Counted from the stretch's first letter, positions 12,536 to 22,359 are shown. The stretch: 64,000 nucleotides of DNA from an uncultured Gemmatimonadales bacterium (GCA_963798845.1 CAWCUS010000004.1:352001-416000), one strand, 5' to 3'. Notes: generated by a model from the letters alone, not told the origin. Program-made: numbers and translations.

Positions 12536-12748
12536 ATGCCCGAGAGCGTCTACAAGGTCATCGAGCTGGTCGGCACGAGCACCGAGTCGTGGGAGAAGGC
12601 CGCGGTCGCCGCGGTGGAGCGGGCGGCGCAGAGCCTGGAAGACCTGCGGATCGCCGAGGTGGTCGAGCAGGACCTCCAGATCGAGGGCGGAAAGGTGCGG
12701 GCCTACCGCGCCAAGGTGAAGGTGTCGTTCCGGTACAAGGGGGACTGA
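12536..12748 (+). CDS. dodecin family protein (flavin-binding)
   Basis: GGAGG RBS; VYKVIELVGTS..SWE..A..YRAKVKVSF. Confidence 0.92.
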   Translation: MPESVYKVIELVGTSTESWEKAAVAAVERAAQSLEDLRIAEVVEQDLQIEGGKVRAYRAKVKVSFRYKGD

Positions 12749-13009
12749 CGCCCGTGTAGGGGGGCGTCGCCTCAGGTCGGAAGCTGCGCCGTCAGCAGGT
12801 CCCGAAGGGAGGGAGTCATGCCTGACCGCGTGCGCGCGCATGACACGCTCGCCATCGCCGGGCTGCACCACGGCTTCTTCGAGGCGCTCCAGGGGAATCG
12901 GGCCACCGGCGGTCTGTTGATCGCCTCCATCGGCCCCGAACCACGTTCGGTGGCAGTACGGCACCGACGGGGCGTTCACGCCGCGCGGCCCGAATCTCCC
13001 TGAGCCGGT

Positions 13010-13085
13010 AGCGCGCGGCGTGGTGCGGGACCTCGACGCCGGTGTGCCCGTGTTCAACGTCCGCACCATGGACGACGCGCTGCCC
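13010..13085 (+). pseudogene. short remnant resembling the C-terminal half of a MacB/ADOP ABC permease
   Basis: ARGVVRDLDAGVPVFNVRTMDDAL aligns by eye with VRGAVREMDRGLPIASLQTMDQNM of the intact permease at 44553-47012. Confidence 0.5.
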
Positions 13086-13115
13086 GCATCCAGGCGGGCA
13101 CGCGGGAGAACAACC

Positions 13116-13145
13116 TTGTTGCGCCTCCGGGCTGGCAGATACAAT
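13116..13145 (+). promoter_or_regulatory. candidate sigma70 promoter of the RiPP operon
   Basis: TTGTTG-N18-TACAAT, ending 46 nt before the PqqD ATG. Confidence 0.4.
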
Positions 13146-13191
13146 GAAGCCGTTCTCCTCGCATGGCCACCCGAACCGGCACCGGCAGACG

Positions 13192-13461
13192 ATGGTAGAC
13201 CTGGAGCGACGCCCTCGCCCTCACGATCGGGTCGTGACGCAGGAGGTCGAGGACACCGTGGTCCTGCTGGACCCGACCAGCGGGGAGTACTTCTCGCTCT
13301 CCGACACCGGCCGGCGCGTCTGGCAGCTCTGCGACGGCACGAGGGCCGCGAGCGAGATCTGCGAGGCCCTGGCGCGAGAATACGATGCGCCCCTGCCGGT
13401 GATCCAGGAGGATGTCCTGCAGCTTCTTTCCGAGCTGATGGACGCGCGACTCCTGGTATAG
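13192..13461 (+). CDS. PqqD family RiPP recognition element (lasso B1-like)
   Basis: 89 aa; VVLLDPTSGEYFSLSDTGRRVWQLCDG..ICEALAREYD..DVLQLLSELMDARLL. Confidence 0.92.
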   Translation: MVDLERRPRPHDRVVTQEVEDTVVLLDPTSGEYFSLSDTGRRVWQLCDGTRAASEICEALAREYDAPLPVIQEDVLQLLSELMDARLLV

Positions 13462-13468
13462 GGACCCG

Positions 13469-13945
13469 ATGCGGGCAGGCGTCGCACCGCGCCGTCTGAG
13501 GGCGGCCGCTCTGTCGGCCCGGGTCATGGCCGTCGCTACGGCCGTGCCCCTGCTCATGCGCCTCCCGCTTCCCCGGCTGGCTCGCCTGCTGGACCGGGCG
13601 ACCCGCCGTTCAGCGCCCTCCGAAGATCCGGAGCGCTCAGCCGGGCGCATCGCGGAGTGTTACGACCATCTTGCCGCCAACGGCTTCGTTCTCCGGCCCG
13701 GCTGCGTCACACGCGGCCTCACCCTCTTCTTCTTTCTGCGCCGCGCCGGCCTGGACGTCCAGCTCGTGTTCGGGATCGGTCGACCCAGGGGGGAGATGGT
13801 CGGGCACTGCTGGCTGGAACGAGCTGGAGCACCGTATCTCGAGCGCCGTGATCCGCGCCCACTTTACGCGGAGACCTACCGCCTTCCGTTGTCGGCGCCA
13901 CGACCGCCACAACCGATGCGGCCCCGGGCGCCGGGGGTGGAATGA
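13469..13945 (+). CDS. lasso peptide B2-like leader peptidase (transglutaminase-like Cys protease)
   Basis: GCVTRGLTL..LRRAG..LVFGIG..GHCWLE signature; directly follows PqqD. Confidence 0.88.
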   Translation: MRAGVAPRRLRAAALSARVMAVATAVPLLMRLPLPRLARLLDRATRRSAPSEDPERSAGRIAECYDHLAANGFVLRPGCVTRGLTLFFFLRRAGLDVQLVFGIGRPRGEMVGHCWLERAGAPYLERRDPRPLYAETYRLPLSAPRPPQPMRPRAPGVE

Positions 13946-14919
13946 CCCACTGCTACGGTCTGGCGGATGTCTCGTTCTCGGTGCAGGCCGATTCCGCCGA
14001 AGTCGTCGAGCTGCTGGACAGGCGGCTGAGGATCCTGCGGGCGAAGGGCGACGCCGGCCCCGCTCTGGTGCTGCGCTTGTCTCCGACCGTCCCGCCTCTG
14101 GCGGATCCGACGGGAGCTCTGGACGACCTGCGGACGGTGTACGACCCGCCGGCCGGGGAGGTGCTGTATTCGGAATCTTCCGATCTCCTCGTCCTGCGCC
14201 AGTCCGGCAGGGACCGGGGGTGGAGCGCGCCCCGGCGCCGCTGCGCGTGGATCGACCCGGGCGACGACGCCGGCAGCCGGTGGCGGGCGACCCATCCACT
14301 TGCGACGCTCTGCCTGTCCGAGCTCCTACGTTCGCAGGGCCTCTTCCCGGTCCACGCCGCCGCGCTGTCCCTCGACGGGAGAGGACTGCTGGTCGCAGGG
14401 AGAAGCGGCTCAGGGAAATCGACCCTCGCGCTCGCGCTCCTGAGGGCCGGGTTCGGTTTCCTCGGAGATGATACGTGCTTCGTCCGTGCCGAGCCCGGGG
14501 GCATGACGGTCTACGCGTTTCCGGACGAGATCGACGTGGCGGACGCCACCGTCCGCATGTTTCCGGAGCTCGAGCCCCTTCTGGAACGCCCCCGCCGCCC
14601 CGGTGCCGCCAAGCGCCCCCTTCTGCCGGAGGAGGTGTATCCGGTCGACTTCGTCCTTCACTGCCGCCCGGACATCCTGCTGTTCCCGGTGAGGGAGAGG
14701 GGGACCAGCCGACTGGAGCCGATGAGCGCGACAGCCGCCCTGCTGGAGCTGGCGCCCGGCATCCTGCTCACGCACCGGACCCGGGCGCAGGCCCACCTCG
14801 ACGCCCTCGGCACGCTCGTCGCCGGGAGCCGGTGCTTCCGGCTGTTCGCCGGGCAGGACTTCGAAGCGTTGCCGGAGCGGCTGGCCGGGCTCCTGGACCG
14901 GGAGCGAAAGGAACCATGA
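13942..14919 (+). CDS. HPr kinase-related P-loop kinase
   Basis: HAAAL..GLLVAGRSGSGKSTL..FLGDD; ATGA overlap with B2. Confidence 0.85.
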   Translation: MTHCYGLADVSFSVQADSAEVVELLDRRLRILRAKGDAGPALVLRLSPTVPPLADPTGALDDLRTVYDPPAGEVLYSESSDLLVLRQSGRDRGWSAPRRRCAWIDPGDDAGSRWRATHPLATLCLSELLRSQGLFPVHAAALSLDGRGLLVAGRSGSGKSTLALALLRAGFGFLGDDTCFVRAEPGGMTVYAFPDEIDVADATVRMFPELEPLLERPRRPGAAKRPLLPEEVYPVDFVLHCRPDILLFPVRERGTSRLEPMSATAALLELAPGILLTHRTRAQAHLDALGTLVAGSRCFRLFAGQDFEALPERLAGLLDRERKEP

Positions 14920-16190
14920 TGAGCGCGTCGCCCGTCAGCAGCTTCTCGCCGGTTGGCGCCCTCCTGGACGTCCTCGCCTTCGCGCCCTCGGGGCGCTCGC
15001 GGCCGCCACGGTCGCCCCTCGAATGGAGGCTGCTGATCCGCGCGGCGGAGCGGACCGAGCTCGAGCCCATGCTGTACCATGCGCTCACGGCGTCCGGAGC
15101 CAAGCAGGAGAGGTCGGTGCCTGAGGAAGCGCGCGCACACCTCCAGGCATTGTACGGGCGGAGCGCCCTCCGCAACGGGTTGATTCTGAACGCGTTGCAG
15201 GAGGCGCTACGGGCTTTGGATGACGCGGGTGTCGACGTCGTGGTCCTCAAGGGCGCATACCTCGCAGGCGCCGTATACGATTCCCCCGCTCTCCGTCCCA
15301 TGAACGACGTGGACATCATGGTCCGCAGATCGTCCGTCGATCGGGCCGTCCGGACCCTGCGGGACACCGGCTGGGCAGAGAGGGAAGAGGCAGGAGGGAC
15401 CCGCAAGCACCACGTGCCGGCATTCGACGGCCCGGGTGGTACTCTTCTCGAGCTTCACTGGACGCTGGAGCTGCCGTCGGCCCCGTTCGTGCTGGATATC
15501 GAGGGCGTCTGGGACCGATCCGTCGCAACGTCCCTGGCCGGTGCGCCTGCCCGATGTCTGGCGGTAGAAGATCTCCTGCTGCACCTGAGCCTGCACGCCG
15601 GCTATCACCACCGCTGGGGCGAGACGGTGCTCACGGAGCTCCCGCTCCGCTGGGTGTTCGACGTCGCGCTGGTCCTGGACCGGCTCGGCCCCACCATCGA
15701 CTGGCCTCGGCTCAGCCACCGGGCTCGCGCCTGGCGCGCATCCAGCTTCCTGTACTGCGCGATCTCCCTCGCCGCGGCGTTGTTCTCGGTATCCACGGCG
15801 GAGGGCGCGCTCGATGGGATCGACCACACGCCCGAGGACGAGCGGATCGTCGCCGTTCTCGAACGTCTGCTCGGCACGGACACCCGCGCCACGGCGCCTC
15901 ACGCGTTACGAGCCTGGCGGCGCAGCGACAGTGCGGGCGAAGGGGCGCGCGCCATCCTCCGCTCGATCTTCCCGCGCCCCGGCCGGATCGCCCAGATGTA
16001 CGGTCTGCCACCGGGCAGCCGCCGGGTCTGGCTCCTCTATCCCGCACGCGTGGTCGACCTGATCGTGCGACGCGGCGCGAAAGCGTTCGGCCTGATCGTC
16101 CGGACCCCGCGCGGGCGGGAGCTCCTGGAGCGCGAATCCGCCAAGCGCATGGTGGCGCAGTGGGTCGACTCCGCCACCCCCCGTGACTGA
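14916..16190 (+). CDS. nucleotidyltransferase family protein (NTP_transf_5-like)
   Basis: VVLKGAYLA..Y..PALRPMNDVDIMV, LELHW, EDLLLHLSLH, DW motifs; ATGA overlap with kinase. Confidence 0.88.
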   Translation: MMSASPVSSFSPVGALLDVLAFAPSGRSRPPRSPLEWRLLIRAAERTELEPMLYHALTASGAKQERSVPEEARAHLQALYGRSALRNGLILNALQEALRALDDAGVDVVVLKGAYLAGAVYDSPALRPMNDVDIMVRRSSVDRAVRTLRDTGWAEREEAGGTRKHHVPAFDGPGGTLLELHWTLELPSAPFVLDIEGVWDRSVATSLAGAPARCLAVEDLLLHLSLHAGYHHRWGETVLTELPLRWVFDVALVLDRLGPTIDWPRLSHRARAWRASSFLYCAISLAAALFSVSTAEGALDGIDHTPEDERIVAVLERLLGTDTRATAPHALRAWRRSDSAGEGARAILRSIFPRPGRIAQMYGLPPGSRRVWLLYPARVVDLIVRRGAKAFGLIVRTPRGRELLERESAKRMVAQWVDSATPRD

Positions 16191-16192
16191 CC

Positions 16193-16295
16193 TGTCGGCG
16201 CCACGACATTGTTGCTTGCCTTCGACATGGAACGGGATCCGGAAGCACCTCGACCTCGTGCGCGGTGCGAGCCGCCCTCGGGAACAGGACTTGCG
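16193..16295 (+). promoter_or_regulatory. candidate sigma54 promoter with upstream palindromic enhancer for the precursor gene
   Basis: TGTCG-N6-CGACA palindrome at 16193-16208; GGGAACAGGACTTGCG (GG-N10-GC) at 16280-16295. Confidence 0.4.
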
Positions 16296-16345
16296 GCCAC
16301 CCCCTCGTCCACCTGCCGTCCGACCATCCACACGGGAGGCTGTCC

Positions 16346-16426
16346 ATGAGGACCCGCAAGCGGTACGTCAAGCCGCAGCTGCGTCGCCTGGGACTGCTCC
16401 GGCGCCTGACGCAGTTCACCTTCTAG
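16346..16426 (+). CDS. RiPP precursor peptide with lasso-type leader (MRTRKRYVKPQLRRLGLLRRLTQFTF)
   Basis: GGGAGG RBS 6 nt before ATG; YxxPxLxxxGxxxxxT motif; directly after the PqqD/B2 operon; too short for the ORF track. Confidence 0.88.
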   Translation: MRTRKRYVKPQLRRLGLLRRLTQFTF

Positions 16427-16447
16427 CGGTCCCTGCGATCCGCTCCA

Positions 16448-16487
16448 TTCAGCGCCCCCGGCAAATGGACCGGTCGGGGGCGCTGAA
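16448..16487. terminator. 13-bp inverted repeat, probable terminator/stabilising hairpin between convergent genes
   Basis: TTCAGCGCCCCCG (16448-16460) pairs with CGGGGGCGCTGAA (16475-16487). Confidence 0.65.
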
Positions 16488-16545
16488 CCATTCAGGCGAC
16501 GACGTTGCCGTCCTCCGCCCATTCCGGCGGCCGGGTGGTGGCCGC

Positions 16546-16938
16546 TCAGGTCCCGGACACGCGGGCGAAGCCGGCGTCGGGGTGCCGGTGAACGGAAACG
16601 GTGGCGTTGCCGAGGGCGCGGGCCTTGGCGTTGAGCCGCTCGACGACGTCATCGTCGACGTCGCCGAAGACGGAGATGGAGAGGATGTCGAGGAGGTCGC
16701 CGAATCTGCGGAACTCATCGTCGCCGACGGTCATGTGGTGGGCCAGGGCGGCGGAGTCCGGGTGCTCGCTGATGACCGTCATCTCGCGCCGCTGGTCGTC
16801 GACGAAGAAGCGGTAGGAGAGAACGTGGGGGTTGTTGGCACGGATGAAGGCGGACAGGCGCTCGATGGCCGGCCGGAGTTCGGGCAGCCGTCCCTGACGG
16901 ATGCGCGAGCGGTCGATGTAGAGTATGGGTGTGTTCAT
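16546..16938 (-). CDS. hypothetical protein, ABM/dimeric alpha-beta barrel-like
   Basis: RIRQGRLPEL..P.VLSYRFF..VISEHPDSAALAHH pattern; GAGG RBS. Confidence 0.65.
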   Translation of the reverse strand: MNTPILYIDRSRIRQGRLPELRPAIERLSAFIRANNPHVLSYRFFVDDQRREMTVISEHPDSAALAHHMTVGDDEFRRFGDLLDILSISVFGDVDDDVVERLNAKARALGNATVSVHRHPDAGFARVSGT

Positions 16939-16951
16939 GGCCGCATCCGCC

Positions 16952-18361
16952 TCAGGTGGGTGTGCGGGCGGCGGCCGCGGTGTCGGGCACGCCGCTCGGG
17001 TCGAAGAGCCGGGAGGCGAGGCGCTCGGCCTGTGCGCGGATCTCCGGCACGCCCAGCACTTCCCAGAGCAGCCCCTTCATGGTGGAGCCGAGCGTGAAGA
17101 GGACAGTCGAGGCGCGGCCGTCTCGGCTCACGACGGCGCCGCCAGGCCGGGCGTCCATCCCGATGCCGGCCGGGCCCGGGCGGATGAGGCCGCGCCGCAG
17201 GAGGTTGGGTACGAGGCCGTCTTCCACTCGCCGGTAATCGGTCTCCGGGCCGATGCAGTTGATCACCCGGGCAGCGAGCTCCCCCACTTCCCGTTCCTGG
17301 CCTCGCGGAGTGTAGCGAACGTCGAGCACGTCGCCCTTGTCCACCATGTCCCGAACGCGACCGGCCACGACCCGGAGGCGGCGCTGGTCCACCATTGCCT
17401 GGACCCGGGCCTGGCTCTCGGGAGGGATGCGGCTGCGGATGCGCTCCCAGTACCGGAACGCGTGGCGCAGGAACCGCCGCTTCTCCGCTTCCGGCAGACC
17501 GCCCCAGACCGACTGGGTGTCCGGCCGCAGTGAGTCGATCACGGCCCGGGGGTCGACGCCCGCCGCTTCGGCCCGGCGCACGTGTGTGCGGATGGTGCGG
17601 AGGACGCTGCGGACGCGGGTGGCGCCGTCGAGCTCGGCGAAGTACGACGGGTACTCGTCGCGCTGCGTCGGGTGCGGCAGCGGCAGGAGGCCTCGGCGGG
17701 AAATGGCCGTGATGCGTCCGGTGTGGCCGCGCCGCCCGAGCACGAGCGCGAGGTCGACCATGGTCTGTCCGGTCCCGATGAAGACCACGGGCTCGCCGGG
17801 GCCGACGTCGTCGAGCGTGCCCGGGTGCCATGGGTCGCGGGCGTAGCGCCCGCTCGCCAGGACGGCCGGGTCCCGGACCGGTGGATGGCGGGGCGGGAGG
17901 TTGCCGAGGGCGAGGACGACGCGGTCGGCCCGGACCTCGTCGCCCGTTTCGATCCGCAGCGTGGCGCCGCGGGTCCCGACTTCGAGATCGACGACTTCGG
18001 ACGAGGCCTCCTCCAGCTTCACCCCGCCGTCGCGCCGTTCGGCCGCTTCTCCGAGAAGCTCGAAGACGTACTCGCGAAGGAGGCGGCGGGGGAGGAAGTC
18101 ACCGGGCTCGGCCCGTCGTCCCCGGGCGGCGACCCAGCGCCGGAACGCATCCGGGTCGTCCGAGGTGGGGCCCATGAGCTCCGCCGGAACGTTGAGCAGG
18201 GGCTCGTCGGAGTCGCCCGAGTAGGCGGGCCCCATGGAGCCGGGCCGCCCGCGGTCGTAGAGGCGGATGTGAGTCCTGCGGCCGGGCGGCGCGAGTCGGA
18301 GCAGGTTCAGCGCGACGAGTCTGCCGGAGAGGCCTCCTCCGACAATGGCGATGCGGAGCAT
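16952..18361 (-). CDS. FAD/NAD(P)-binding protein (YdhS-like)
   Basis: IAIVGGGLSG, GPAYS..LLNVPA..M, IGTGQTMVD, SRRGLLP, VINCIGP. Confidence 0.85.
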   Translation of the reverse strand: MLRIAIVGGGLSGRLVALNLLRLAPPGRRTHIRLYDRGRPGSMGPAYSGDSDEPLLNVPAELMGPTSDDPDAFRRWVAARGRRAEPGDFLPRRLLREYVFELLGEAAERRDGGVKLEEASSEVVDLEVGTRGATLRIETGDEVRADRVVLALGNLPPRHPPVRDPAVLASGRYARDPWHPGTLDDVGPGEPVVFIGTGQTMVDLALVLGRRGHTGRITAISRRGLLPLPHPTQRDEYPSYFAELDGATRVRSVLRTIRTHVRRAEAAGVDPRAVIDSLRPDTQSVWGGLPEAEKRRFLRHAFRYWERIRSRIPPESQARVQAMVDQRRLRVVAGRVRDMVDKGDVLDVRYTPRGQEREVGELAARVINCIGPETDYRRVEDGLVPNLLRRGLIRPGPAGIGMDARPGGAVVSRDGRASTVLFTLGSTMKGLLWEVLGVPEIRAQAERLASRLFDPSGVPDTAAAARTPT

Positions 18362-18670: not shown

Positions 18671-20035
18671 TTGATCTCCATCATCGTGCGAACGAAGAAC
18701 GAGGAGCGCTGGATCGGCTCGTGCCTCGAGGCGATCGGTCGCCAGACCCGCACCGATTTCGAGGTCGTGCTGGTCGACAACGAAAGCAGCGACAGGACGG
18801 TCGCGAAAGCGCTCCAATATGGCGTGAGATTGGTGTCGATCCCGGAATTCAAGCCAGGCGCTGCGATCAATCGGGGAATCGAGGCGGCCGACGGCGACGT
18901 CATTGTGTGTCTATCGGGACACTGCATCCCGGTCGACGAGCACTGGCTGGCGAACCTGGTCGCCGGTCTCGACGACGAAACCGTTGGCGGTGTCTACGGA
19001 AGGCAGGAGCCCCTGGCCTTCACACCGGATCTCGACAAGCGCGACCTCCTGATCACGTTCGGGCTCGACCCGCGGGTCCAGGTAAAAGACAGCTTCTTCC
19101 ACAACGCGAACAGCGCCTTCCGCAAGTCGACCTGGGAAAGGTTCCCCTTCGACGAGGAAGTGTCCAACATCGAAGACCGCATCTGGGCGAGTCAGGTCCA
19201 GGGCGCGGGGATGAAGATCCTCTACGAGCCCGACGCGAGCGTCTATCATCACCACGGGATCCACCACAGCGGTGATCGTGTGCGCTGCGGCAATATCATC
19301 CGGATCCTGGACACGACGGGTCAGGAAGGGGTTCGCACCGCCGACAACAAGATCGATGCGCGGACTCTCAACACGGTGCTGGTGATCGCCGTGCGCGAGG
19401 AGGGGCTGAGACGACTCGGAGACAGGCCGCTCTACGAATACGCCATCGAACACGCCAGGTGCTCCGAGCTCGTGCGCACGATCGTGGTCTCGACCGACAG
19501 CCCGAGCGTGGCAGCCGAAGCCTCCGCGGCCGGGGCGGATCTGGTGCTGACGCGAGAGGAGGAGGAATCGCGCTTCGACGTCATTCTCGAGCTGATGATG
19601 CAGTCCTCGCTGCACAAGCTGGAGGACCGGGGCATCATTCCCGACATTCTCGTGATGCTCGAGACGACGTTCCCGTTTCGGGACCCCACGCTCATCGACA
19701 AGCTTATCTACCAGTATGTCGAGGGCGGCTTCGACACGGTGATTCCGGCGCGGATCGAGTTCAACTCCTGCTGGATGGAGGAGGAGGGCGCCTACCGCCG
19801 CGTCGACGAAGGGTACGTCGCGAGGCAATTCAAGAAACCCTTCTATACGGGTCTCAAGGGCCTCTGTTGCGTGTGCTCTCCGGCCACCGTCCGGCAGGGC
19901 CAGCTGTTTGGCGAGAACGTCGGGCTCTACAAGCTGACCGACGCGGTCCATTCGATCGAGGTCCGGTCCGATGACGACGTCGCCCTGGCCGAGACGGTCA
20001 TGGCGAGCCCCCTGTTCGCGACTCGCGTCGGGTAG
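18671..20035 (+). CDS. GT2 glycosyltransferase fused to an acylneuraminate cytidylyltransferase-like domain
   Basis: ISIIVRTKNEE..VDNESSDRT GT2 fold; C-terminal LGDRPL..AIEHA..IVVSTDS..ETTFPFR..IEVRSDDD resembles NeuA/KdsB; TTG start. Confidence 0.85.
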   Translation: MISIIVRTKNEERWIGSCLEAIGRQTRTDFEVVLVDNESSDRTVAKALQYGVRLVSIPEFKPGAAINRGIEAADGDVIVCLSGHCIPVDEHWLANLVAGLDDETVGGVYGRQEPLAFTPDLDKRDLLITFGLDPRVQVKDSFFHNANSAFRKSTWERFPFDEEVSNIEDRIWASQVQGAGMKILYEPDASVYHHHGIHHSGDRVRCGNIIRILDTTGQEGVRTADNKIDARTLNTVLVIAVREEGLRRLGDRPLYEYAIEHARCSELVRTIVVSTDSPSVAAEASAAGADLVLTREEEESRFDVILELMMQSSLHKLEDRGIIPDILVMLETTFPFRDPTLIDKLIYQYVEGGFDTVIPARIEFNSCWMEEEGAYRRVDEGYVARQFKKPFYTGLKGLCCVCSPATVRQGQLFGENVGLYKLTDAVHSIEVRSDDDVALAETVMASPLFATRVG

Positions 20036-20049
20036 GGAGCGGCCTCGGG

Positions 20050-21027
20050 ATGCATCGTCTCGGCATCGTCGGTCTCGGTCACGTGGCGGCGCACCAGGTC
20101 GCCGCGCTCGCCCACGGCGAGGCACTCGAGCTGGTGGCGGTATGTGACCCTGACGGAGAGCGCCTGGCCGTGCTCGGTGAGGATCGGAAGACGTACACCG
20201 ACATCGCCGACATGTTGTCGGAGTCGGACCTCGACGTCGTCATGGTGGCCACACCCAATCATCTGCACGTGCAGCACGGCATCCAGGTGCTGGAGGCGGG
20301 CAAGTGGCTCGTAATGGAAAAGCCCCTGGCCGAGACGCAGGCCGGTTTCGACGCCGTCGCACGGGCCCGGGAGCGGTGTGGAGGACACTGCACCATCGCG
20401 TTGCACGCCGCGTTCGGGCAGGAGGTCGAGTGGTTCTGCCGATCCGGGACGAGGCAGGAGCTCGGGGCCGCTGAAATCGACTCGTTCACGGGCCAGTTCT
20501 ACGATCCCTACTTCGAGAACGGACGTTTGCAGGCCCGGGCCCTCTCCCTGGGTGGGGCGTGGATGGACAGTGGGATCAACGCGCTCAGCGTCATCGCGCG
20601 CATGCTCCCGCTCGAGCGCCTGGTGGTGCGCGACAGCCGCATGACGCGCGTCGCCAACGTGGACTGCACCGAAGTGCAGGGCACCGTGGACTTCGAGGTC
20701 CGCAACGGAGACTTCGTGGGGTCGGGGCGCATCGACACCAACTGGACGCTCGGGCGCGACATGAAGGTCACGACGGTTCGCCCGCGCGGGTCCGACAGGA
20801 GGATCATCCTCGACCACTCCGCCCAGCAGGTTCGAGTCCGGTCGCCTGAAGGCGAGGAGGTCGTCTTCGCGTGCGGCAACGGACTGCCTCGACTCACCAA
20901 CCACTACATCGGCGTCTTCGGCAATGTGGCACGGCAGCTCGAAGTGGGCCAGGACAATTTCGAACTCGCCAGGGCGTTGCACGGCCTGCTGTACGAGGCC
21001 GAGGGTCGCCAGGCGCCCACGTTCTGA
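20050..21027 (+). CDS. Gfo/Idh/MocA family oxidoreductase
   Basis: GIVGLG, VATPNHLH, EKP, GGAWMDSGIN. Confidence 0.88.
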   Translation: MHRLGIVGLGHVAAHQVAALAHGEALELVAVCDPDGERLAVLGEDRKTYTDIADMLSESDLDVVMVATPNHLHVQHGIQVLEAGKWLVMEKPLAETQAGFDAVARARERCGGHCTIALHAAFGQEVEWFCRSGTRQELGAAEIDSFTGQFYDPYFENGRLQARALSLGGAWMDSGINALSVIARMLPLERLVVRDSRMTRVANVDCTEVQGTVDFEVRNGDFVGSGRIDTNWTLGRDMKVTTVRPRGSDRRIILDHSAQQVRVRSPEGEEVVFACGNGLPRLTNHYIGVFGNVARQLEVGQDNFELARALHGLLYEAEGRQAPTF

Positions 21028-21036
21028 AGCTCGATC

Positions 21037-22221
21037 CTAGCCCTTCCCGAGCAGCCGCCCGAGAACGCGCTTCACGAACCGGGAAGCGACCACGAGACCG
21101 GGCAGGGGATCGTACCAGCGGAACCACTGGCCGCTCCTTGGCCGGAAGAGCAGCGCAACCTCCGTCGCCAGGATGCGCAGGAGCGGTACGCCGTCTTTGC
21201 GCATGGACCGGATGTCCGTGTACGCATTGTGGAAGTACAGTCCTTCGCGCTGGCTGCTTCCCGAACGCGAAGCCGGCTCGCCGGCCGCGATCCGGTAGGT
21301 GTTCCACACTGTGGGAAGACCGCACGCTTCGTCGAAACCCACCTCGCCGCCGATCCGGGGGTTCAGCTCGATGTACTTGAACATCCCGTCGCGCTCGTCC
21401 CATCGGTACTCGATGCCGACATGGCCCACGTAGTTCAGGGCTTTCCCGAGGTCGGCCGCGAGCGTGAGGATGTCCTGGTTGACGCGGCTGATCGAGAAGG
21501 TGCTGGTCCCGAAGTGAGGCGGCATGGTCCGCAGCTTCTGGCGCACCAGGCAGTCGAGCAGCTCCGAGTTTTCGTCGAACGTGCCGGAGCACACCCACGA
21601 GTTGTCGTCGCGCCCGGGGATGATCTCCTGGGCGAGCAGGACTGGGAGGGCGTGGCCCCAGTCGTCGTAGAATCGCTGCAGCTCGTCCGCATCCTTCGCC
21701 GTCTGGACCTTCTCGGGGAAAACGGACCGCACGGCGAATGAATGGGGCTTGAAGATGATGGGGAACCGGAGCTGTCGAGAGAGCTCCTCCGGATGGGACG
21801 GCAGCTCGCGAATCGTCTTCGGGATGGCGAATCCGAGTGATTCGATGAGCGCGGTCTCCTTTCGCTTGTCGTTGAGCGCGTCCACCATCTCTCGCGGAGG
21901 CAACCTGAAGCGGAACCGCTTCCCGAGCTCCTCCTCGTTGGTGGACACCAGGGACACGAGCAGGTCGGAGGTGAAGAGCAGCACCGTCCCCTCGCCAGGA
22001 AGGCTCCGCAGGAGATTCAGGATCTCCCGCTCCTTCACGGCGACCTCATCCGCGTCACCGGGCACGACGTACTTCCTGACCGGATAACGCGAGTGCAGCA
22101 CGGGGTCGGTCTCGTCGAAGGCGATGGCGGTGACGCGGACCCCGCGGCGCGCGAGGGACCGGACCGTGCCGAGCCCACCGGGGCCGTGCGACACGACGAG
22201 CGCTGGCGGTAACGTGGCCAA
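21037..22221 (-). CDS. ATP-grasp carboxylate-amine ligase (D-aspartate ligase-like)
   Basis: VRSLARRG, FPIIFKP, QEIIPG, EYRWDERDG.FKYIELNPR. Confidence 0.85.
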   Translation of the reverse strand: MATLPPALVVSHGPGGLGTVRSLARRGVRVTAIAFDETDPVLHSRYPVRKYVVPGDADEVAVKEREILNLLRSLPGEGTVLLFTSDLLVSLVSTNEEELGKRFRFRLPPREMVDALNDKRKETALIESLGFAIPKTIRELPSHPEELSRQLRFPIIFKPHSFAVRSVFPEKVQTAKDADELQRFYDDWGHALPVLLAQEIIPGRDDNSWVCSGTFDENSELLDCLVRQKLRTMPPHFGTSTFSISRVNQDILTLAADLGKALNYVGHVGIEYRWDERDGMFKYIELNPRIGGEVGFDEACGLPTVWNTYRIAAGEPASRSGSSQREGLYFHNAYTDIRSMRKDGVPLLRILATEVALLFRPRSGQWFRWYDPLPGLVVASRFVKRVLGRLLGKG

Positions 22222-22359
22222 GTGGATTCGTGTTGGACGGGTGACGAGAACAGGAACTCCAAACCCCGCCTCGGGCGGTCGGAAGGATGGGTGAGAGTGG
22301 TTCAGCGGGTCAAGTAGTAGTGAACGGGGGGGCGAGCACCACCCGTCTGGCCGGACGGA

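Follow-up and report, generated by a model that had tools for sequence, protein, structure and literature searches.

Within a 64,000-nucleotide stretch of DNA from an uncultured Gemmatimonadales bacterium (GCA_963798845.1, CAWCUS010000004.1:352001-416000; this whole stretch is hereafter called the window), positions 13192-16487 hold a tightly coupled operon encoding a PqqD-type recognition element for peptides that are made by the ribosome and modified after translation (RiPPs), a lasso B2-type Cys peptidase, an HprK-like kinase and an NTP_transf_5 family enzyme, followed by the gene of a short precursor peptide. All five genes lie on the plus strand. The first encodes a PqqD-family RiPP recognition element (RRE) resembling lasso B1 proteins (13192..13461, with an alternative ATG at 13144; PF05402, E 1.9e-21), and its TAG is separated by 7 nt from the ATG of the second (junction at 13459-13471), which encodes the transglutaminase-fold Cys peptidase (13469..13945; Transglut_core3 PF13471, E 7e-14; NCBIfam lasso_biosyn_B2 NF033537, 61.6 bits with a cut-off of 33). 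ATGA overlaps at 13942 and 14916 join the B2 gene to the kinase gene (13942..14919; partial Pfam and NCBIfam matches, and an N-terminal domain) and the kinase gene to the NTP_transf_5 gene (14916..16190; PF14907, E 2.6e-59), whose product belongs to the homologue class of PsmN, LppN and BsfN. A 155-nt spacer lies between the latter and a 26-codon open reading frame (ORF) from 16346 (ATG) to 16426 (TAG), which codes for a lasso-type leader and a three-residue tail and is preceded by a Shine-Dalgarno-like GGGAGG, read from the sequence at 16334..16339, 6 nt ahead of the ATG. A 15-bp GC-rich hairpin with a perfect stem (16448..16487, assigned to neither strand) follows in the interval towards a convergent ABM-like gene. 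Every element that a preliminary description of this DNA had listed, from the 7-nt gap and the two ATGA overlaps to precursor and hairpin, was located at these positions. The genome holds one copy each of the cassette-type PqqD, kinase and NTP genes, B2 is its only PF13471 gene, and exactly one such precursor is present.

A word-indexed search returned at least 250 relatives of the kinase at E<=1e-10, nearly all from metagenomes, and a kinase profile built from 28 relatives matched 955 clusters (50% identity) at E<=1e-30. Scanning one genome per species, with up to 8 kb on either side, yielded 78 related loci, all from metagenome-assembled genomes, which according to their record labels span nine phyla: Acidobacteriota (mostly Thermoanaerobaculia), Actinomycetota, Gemmatimonadota, Chloroflexota/Thermomicrobiota, Deinococcota, Verrucomicrobiota, Armatimonadota, Pseudomonadota and Ca. 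Tectimicrobiota (Candidatus Entotheonella). With the window proteins as queries against six-frame ORFs, PqqD was matched in 72 and B2 in 69 of the 78 loci at E<1e-8, while the NTP_transf_5 family hidden Markov model matched in 70, in 57 of them directly downstream of the kinase; the gene order PqqD-B2-kinase(-NTP) is kept in most. Among 40 relatives of the window's own genome, a count that includes three unpublished genomes (G016, G017 and G026), a single orthologue was found (G009; E 2.4e-61, 43% identity), on a 2.5-kb contig that carries B2, kinase and NTP genes in the same order; a genome of the same genus has no orthologue (best match 7.5e-4). In a quick, unfinished maximum-likelihood tree of 69 kinases, for which 10 of 79 rows with a matched stretch below 230 aa were dropped, the phyla are largely clustered (12 label changes compared to a minimum of 9), and the window copy forms a long branch (1.25) next to two sequences from Gemmatimonadaceae (Shimodaira-Hasegawa-like approximate likelihood ratio test, SH-aLRT, 94).

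The precursor, MRTRKRYVKPQLRRLGLLRRLTQFTF, can be divided into the leader MRTRKRYVKPQLRRLGLLRRLTQ and the core FTF. In this register (YVKPQL...TQ|FTF), Tyr falls on position -17, Pro on -14, Leu on -12 and Thr on -2, the positions that these residues hold in lasso leaders (PMC10368454), and the peptide contains the RRE-binding motif [Y/W]xxPx[L/V/I/F/A] given by Popov and co-workers (Nat Commun 2026, PMC13381572). The lasso-type features, YxxPxL and a Thr at -2, are conserved across the precursor family. The consensus for lasso leaders is YxxPxLx3Gx5Tx.

To define the precursor family, a profile was built from strict motif matches and run against a database of 26,455 ORF tails. It matched 79 short ORFs (E 1e-4 to 1e-17) in the window and in 68 of the 78 related loci, and these matches are not due to chance; of the 10 loci without a precursor, at least three (L038, L060 and L085) break off next to the kinase because the contig ends there. 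The family consensus reads M-(x)-K-K-x-Y-x-K-P-x-L-R-R-L-G-L-L-R-x-[VIL]-T-R, followed by the tail. In 73 of the 79 peptides, with that of the window counted, the tail comprises three residues after Thr-x (FSF 62, LSF 5, FTF 4, YTF 1, VYF 1), of which the middle one carries a hydroxyl group in all 73 cases (Ser 67, Thr 5, Tyr 1); all of these tails finish with Phe, and none contains Asp or Glu. The remaining six are FSVPQ, FSGGNTYNPG, FSGGHNTGPPA, AFSF and two long tails from Verrucomicrobiota. The 73 genes with three-residue tails represent 71 distinct DNA sequences, and their summed entropy at codon positions 1, 2 and 3 amounts to 11.9, 8.5 and 23.9; this variation at the third codon position indicates that purifying selection acts on the peptide. 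Of the 71 precursors with an ATG no more than 12 codons upstream of the leader Tyr (8 of the 79 have no such ATG), 70 have a predicted length of 23-28 aa and one of 34 aa. For genes in loci with a PqqD match, the precursor ends 0-600 nt upstream of PqqD in 60 out of 77 cases. A further precursor type, reading ...YRRPALTVFGDMRELT and then about 19 residues, was seen in related genomes at two loci of distant HprK-like paralogues (L022:1876-2100 and L023:2361-2594, both on the minus strand), whose kinases are only distantly related to the window kinase (E 1e-5 to 1e-6); therefore, several kinds of precursor with such a leader coexist in the order.

No lasso cyclase accompanies the cassette. The genome assembly (4.26 Mb in 6 contigs, 96.3% complete) contains 2 PF00733 (Asn_synthase) genes, both on other contigs than the cassette. 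Both are ordinary AsnB: the proteins start with MCGI and pass TIGR01536 (443 and 361 bits, cut-off 267), and their scores with the lasso cyclase model NF033535 (188 and 153 bits) lie far below its cut-off of 525. The preliminary description had recognized no lasso cyclase in the 64 kb of the window, and this whole-genome search extends its observation. Furthermore, Pfam detected no Asn synthase, signal peptidase or ABC exporter in 17 further predicted window genes outside the cassette (positions 1-28006), one of which gave no match at all. Likewise, no plausible linked lasso cyclase was found in the 78 related loci (up to ~8 kb on each side). In phmmer searches with the two AsnB proteins of the genome as queries, Asn-synthase-like matches were obtained in only two of these loci, and both were rejected as cyclases: the match in L035 belongs to a split glutamate synthase, of which it represents the amidotransferase part (GATase, GXGXG, Glu_synthase), and that in L097 is a full canonical AsnB, which starts with MCGIAG and lies 5 kb upstream. 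As a positive control, we used three regions of cassette-bearing genomes with the best lasso cyclase model scores, in which the same queries detected all four Asn-synthase-like ORFs adjoining PqqD genes (E 1e-9 to 1e-22); judging from their PqqD neighbours, these ORFs are likely to be cyclases. In five genomes searched as a whole, no match exceeded the (high) cut-off set for the lasso cyclase model. Two complete chromosomes have a candidate, the best-scoring of which lies 0.9 Mb from the cassette in one and 2.5 Mb in the other, and the complete chromosome of a member of the Trueperaceae (G045) holds no Asn synthase beyond a 23-bit fragment. Some genomes with the tripeptide cassette also contain separate lasso-like loci, in which PqqD stands beside Asn-synthase-like genes: L118 (G041:C30:12000-26000) has two such genes in tandem, accompanied by one kinase-like and one NTP_transf_5-like gene, in L117 a single one is joined by a kinase-like gene, and L116 consists only of PqqD and one Asn-synthase-like gene.

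According to the preliminary description, a decayed lasso locus would be recognized by homologous clusters that retain a cyclase and long cores with Asp or Glu. Neither trait was found: only two of 78 loci gave Asn-synthase-like matches, neither of them plausible as a cyclase, with queries that found four of four in the control, and 73 of 79 precursors end three residues past Thr-x. The recurrence of the cassette, the lack of a linked cyclase and the retention of the tail across the 78 loci therefore argue for a selected, widespread non-lasso system rather than a decayed lasso locus.

In a profile of 28 orthologues, the best solved relative of the PqqD protein is the lasso B1 protein TbiB1 (5v1u, E 5.5e-20, 74 bits), ahead of 9x90 (56 bits), PqqD proteins, 9x8z (44 bits) and TfuB1. 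The entries 9x90 and 9x8z may be structures of Popov et al., although their titles do not say so. Compared to the NCBIfam model of the HPr-rel-A system, the PqqD protein reaches 28.7 bits (cut-off 35). In B2, residues C79, H113 (within HCW) and E125 do not vary among 27 aligned orthologues, each of them is kept in 66 of 70, and together they form a putative catalytic triad. The kinase scores 29.3 bits with Hpr_kinase_C, just below the cut-off of 33.3, shows partial matches to HprK_rel_A and HprK_rel_B, and reaches 43.9 and 48.6 bits with the HPr-rel-A and HprK-related kinase B models (TIGR04352/TIGR04353 and TIGR04355; cut-off 200 each); no curated NCBIfam model scored above its cut-off for the peptide, the kinase or the RRE. 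The kinases bear the precomputed Pfam tag PF27840. A PDB search with the kinase matched only the P-loop region of HPr kinases, and PDB sequence searches with B2 and the NTP_transf_5 enzyme returned no match. The kinase carries the hallmarks of HPr kinase/phosphorylases, namely a catalytic His, a GxxGxGKS loop and a DD pair, and its residues H138, G153, G156, G158, K159, S160, D176 and D177 are invariant or nearly so in 28 sequences. With a constant offset of 10, they share the spacing of H148, G163, G166, G168, K169, S170, D186 and D187 in BsfK, which matter according to mutagenesis (PMC10368454). Of 32 orthologues of the NTP_transf_5 enzyme, 29 retain D131, 29 retain D133 and 30 retain H181; the two Asp residues form a DxD like D134/D136 of PsmN, a pair that PsmN needs, as the double mutant is inactive (PMC6993621).

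Taken together, we find it probable, reading from the sequences, that the locus encodes a self-contained, lasso-derived and cyclase-less pathway of the RiPP type, which acts on a 26-residue peptide whose non-leader part is Phe-Thr-Phe only (Phe-Ser-Phe in most relatives) and yields a phosphate-decorated tri- or tetrapeptide. Gene content, operon coupling, the lack of a cyclase and the conservation of cassette, peptide and catalytic residues are established here; the chemical steps and their order, as well as the fate and role of the product, we infer by analogy. The PqqD protein would bind the YxxPxL leader, and the HprK-like kinase, guided by the RRE, would phosphorylate the central Ser/Thr of the tail. 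The NTP_transf_5 enzyme may add a further group to the phosphate, by analogy with the PsmN-dependent hexosylation of phosphorylated pseudomycoidin, and the B2 Cys peptidase would cut either after Thr-x, releasing a modified tripeptide, or directly after Thr, releasing a tetrapeptide. A natural fusion of B2 (PF13471) and kinase (P0035, 507 aa, with the kinase at residues 186-506) speaks for this reading. The proposal of the preliminary description that leader-processing and tailoring enzymes have been redeployed for a linear non-lasso product is thus supported by the absent cyclase, the FTF core and the conserved cassette.

The closest published system is that of the linear polyphosphorylated peptides (LPPs), which are encoded by lppA-K-B-S-D-N clusters of Bacillota (PMC13381572). 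In the LPP leader motif YxxPxVLxHQxIxFETxxS, the Thr lies 15 and the phosphorylated Ser 18 residues past the Tyr, and this Ser is the proven site of LppK (PMC13381572). We take the central Ser/Thr of the tail as the kinase target because the present family has the same spacing, with Tyr(0), Thr(15) and Ser/Thr(18). If the lasso rule applies (Thr at -2), the cut would follow the next residue and give Phe-Ser(P)-Phe; if B2 instead cut after Thr, in the manner of LPPs, the product would be x-Phe-Ser(P)-Phe and its phosphoserine would occupy core position 3. The Bsf kinase, BsfK, phosphorylates core Ser3 and is stimulated by BsfB1 (PMC10368454); LppK places several phosphates on core Ser3 of LPP, whose cleavage is poor without phosphorylation (PMC13381572). 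PsmN, the one characterised NTP_transf_5 homologue, is needed for one or two hexoses on phosphorylated pseudomycoidin, not for nucleotidylation (PMC6993621).

Several observations weigh against this pathway as proposed. BsfK and LppK target core position 3 and not 2; for the central Ser/Thr to be at position 3, B2 would have to cut directly after Thr, contrary to the lasso rule. The NTP_transf_5 step is weak, because LppN showed no activity in heterologous expression (PMC13381572) and BsfN is uncharacterised (PMC10368454). The kinase stays under the Pfam and NCBIfam cut-offs of every named family. The spacing of C79, H113 and E125 in B2 resembles that of the Cys-His-Asp triad of McjB, but the third residue is Glu here instead of Asp. 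An ABC transporter cluster was found in only five of the 78 related loci, and the operon includes no exporter. No RNA dataset is listed for window positions 13100-16500. Finally, the window copy is atypical in its long branch, in a precursor gene that lies downstream of the NTP gene rather than upstream, and in lacking the paired secreted protein described below.

A different reading, which we regard as unlikely although it deserves consideration, is that the peptide is modified but not trimmed, so that a highly basic phosphopeptide of ~25 residues would be the product itself, or a scaffold that has a small molecule assembled on its C-terminus and set free in some other way, with B2 cutting elsewhere or being a mere partner. 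The near invariance of the whole peptide (RRLGLLRxxTR), and not of the tail alone, fits this idea, but conservation of the leader is to be expected when four proteins read one peptide. An exporter for a small product was not found in the scanned window genes, and the poor cleavage of the unphosphorylated LPP precursor makes the coupling of modification and processing unpredictable from sequence (PMC13381572). Removal of the leader is favoured by the invariant catalytic Cys and His of B2 and by the Thr at the position that lasso B2 enzymes require (PMC10368454).

In 63 of the 78 related loci, the cassette is accompanied by a gene for a secreted or lipoprotein-like protein of ~550 aa (e.g., L046:3740-5401, L026:5195-6958 and L057:3058-5037). 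These paired proteins begin with a signal or lipoprotein-like N-terminus and a head that varies (Ice_binding, Big_1, weak SGL); their C-terminal region of ~200 aa is conserved and was modelled as two beta-sandwich domains (predicted local distance difference test score, pLDDT, 85.5); a fold search with this conserved end gave only generic beta-sandwich or carbohydrate-binding-module (CBM)-like matches at template modelling (TM) scores <= 0.31. Directly downstream of the paired gene lie 58 of the 79 precursor genes, the pair of secreted-protein and precursor genes is tandemly duplicated in L031, L047 and L101, and L077 and L102 have three precursor genes each with one secreted-protein gene called. 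Long opposite-strand ORFs that formed a cluster of their own ('C2') were dismissed, based on codon-position GC, as an antisense shadow of the secreted-protein gene. In the window's genome, neither the paired protein nor a double beta-sandwich domain was found.

This association raises the question of whether the real substrate is another protein, with the paired secreted beta-sandwich protein as candidate and the small ORF as a regulator or decoy. The frequency of the pair (63 of 78 loci), the position of 58 of 79 precursors directly downstream and the tandem duplication of the pairs would suit such a role, which we nonetheless judge very unlikely: the window's genome holds cassette and precursor without the paired protein, the RRE-binding motif is on the small peptide and not on the large protein, and the paired proteins have signal or lipoprotein-like N-termini, of which none was noticed on the four enzymes (by eye, no predictor).

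Returning to the pathway that trims and phosphorylates the small peptide, a bolder version of it can be envisaged. Here, the cassette would define a new class of RiPPs, and no smaller core that depends on an RRE would be known than its phosphorylated and further decorated Phe-Ser/Thr-Phe, made by lasso B1/B2 proteins, a kinase and a nucleotidyltransferase and kept near letter-for-letter in at least nine phyla. The product would then act as a peptide-derived metabolite or signal with a conserved receptor, in contrast to a variable antibiotic, and in most lineages the receptor could be the double beta-sandwich end of the paired protein, whose gene is co-duplicated with that of the precursor. We put this forward tentatively, and in its entirety it seems to us rather doubtful; that the product class is new has a substantial chance. 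The preliminary description had likewise spoken of a non-lasso RiPP class. The non-lasso part of that claim stands, while the LPP family has meanwhile set a precedent for a class of this kind made from such parts (PMC13381572). In a literature search, no paper was found with 'RLGLLR' or with 'FSF' together with a RiPP leader peptide, only lasso and LPP papers, with ~1.7 million PubMed Central (PMC) articles and subscription-only papers lying outside its scope.

The cassette shares parts, and probably chemistry, with both lasso and LPP systems. As in LPP clusters, an RRE, an HprK-like kinase and an NTP transferase occur without a cyclase, and the likeness extends to the YxxP leader, to the Thr three residues before the phosphorylated (here, predicted) Ser/Thr and to the linear (here, proposed) product. 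It is nevertheless highly improbable that the cassette is an ordinary member of the LPP family, despite the same Tyr-to-Thr-to-Ser spacing (PMC13381572). The leader protease of LPPs is the SpI-like (SipW-type) signal peptidase LppS, and their clusters carry the MsbA-like exporter LppD (PMC13381572). Neither an SpI-like peptidase nor an MsbA-like exporter was found in the cassette or the other scanned window genes; the present cassette has a lasso B2 Cys peptidase instead, and no exporter in the operon. The LPP motif YxxPxVLxHQxIxFETxxS agrees with YxxPxLRRLGLLRxxTx plus three-residue tail at Y, P, T and S alone, and precursors of mostly 23-28 aa with an invariant tail differ from LPP precursors of 35-200 aa with variable C-termini (PMC13381572). 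Moreover, LPPs are reported as restricted to Bacillota (PMC13381572), whereas the present family occurs in nine other phyla, and the RRE profile prefers TbiB1 (74 bits) to 9x90 (56 bits) and 9x8z (44 bits).

With lasso clusters, the locus has in common the discrete RRE (B1), the B2 peptidase and the leader motif, while a cyclase and a ring-capable core are missing. A lasso macrolactam is a 7-9-residue ring closed onto an Asp/Glu side chain, and a core of three residues without Asp/Glu cannot form one. [quoted passage not shown] These three clusters differ in having a macrolactam cyclase, an ABC exporter and cores of ring length, compared to a genome without lasso cyclase and a three-residue core without acidic acceptor. 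That the cassette is a decayed lasso locus, or part of a lasso pathway whose cyclase is encoded elsewhere, is extremely improbable despite its lasso-type B1, B2 and leader motif and despite the separate PqqD/Asn-synthase-like loci L116-L118 (two with a kinase-like, one with an NTP_transf_5-like match), given that the window's genome has no lasso cyclase and Trueperaceae G045 none at all, that all ORFs are intact and conserved over nine phyla, that the core cannot form the isopeptide ring, and that the kinases of the lasso-like loci are remote (E 1e-8 and 4e-5; values within the family are at most 1e-26 and for the most part lie between 1e-48 and 1e-87).

A further parallel is offered by pyrroloquinoline quinone (PQQ) and mycofactocin, which are made with a PqqD-type RRE from a short precursor; only a few of its C-terminal residues, conserved across phyla, turn into the product. 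These pathways rest on radical SAM chemistry, while the present cassette consists of a kinase, a nucleotidyltransferase and a lasso protease, with no radical SAM enzyme in the window. If the proposed pathway is correct, proteins for lasso leader recognition and leader cleavage would have found a second, widespread and lasting use in making a product that is incapable of forming a lasso, and the idea of linear phosphopeptides, known from LPPs, would hold beyond Bacillota for most soil phyla, where another protease takes part. The near invariance of the tripeptide suggests a conserved small molecule in soil and sediment bacteria that are abundant and for the most part uncultured. Genome-mining tools that require a cyclase, or an ORF threshold above ~30 codons, will miss the whole family.

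Regarding transcription of the locus, the hairpin at 16448-16487 has a folding energy of -36.1 kcal/mol (z -2.88; 1 of 200 shuffles folds equally well) and, lacking a U tract, is likely to terminate transcription in both directions. Directly past the NTP_transf_5 stop, ahead of the 155-nt spacer, a weak hairpin resembling a terminator and followed by a T-rich tail was observed (16193-16208), and the precursor may therefore have a separate promoter. A sigma-70 promoter scan gave no sites, a terminator scan gave two weak sites only, one of them that at 16193-16208, and an Rfam scan of window positions 12700-16700 gave no match at E<=0.1. About a quarter of the words of positions 13100-16500 occur in two sets of DNA contigs that stem from a single study.

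The operon is flanked upstream by unrelated genes (LysE, aldo/keto reductase, dodecin). On the downstream side, a convergent ABM-like gene (weak, 18.5 bits) and an FAD/NAD(P)-binding gene (PF13454) at 16546-18361 on the minus strand end at the hairpin of the precursor, and neither was found adjoining the cassette in other loci. Further on, 2 kb downstream of the cassette, a fusion of glycosyltransferase family 2 (GT2) and cytidylyltransferase, a GFO/IDH/MocA oxidoreductase and an ATP-grasp-like gene (18671-22359) follow, which are not conserved with the cassette elsewhere. LPP and paeninodin clusters are located in polysaccharide loci. Two other genes recur as lineage-specific neighbours of the cassette in Thermoanaerobaculia: a radical SAM/SPASM gene with a PqqD-like match, ~4.5 kb upstream of the kinase in 18 loci (e.g., L051:3234-4640), and a gene for a Peptidase_C25 protein of 1,373 aa, downstream on the opposite strand in 12 loci (e.g., L033:9778-13899).

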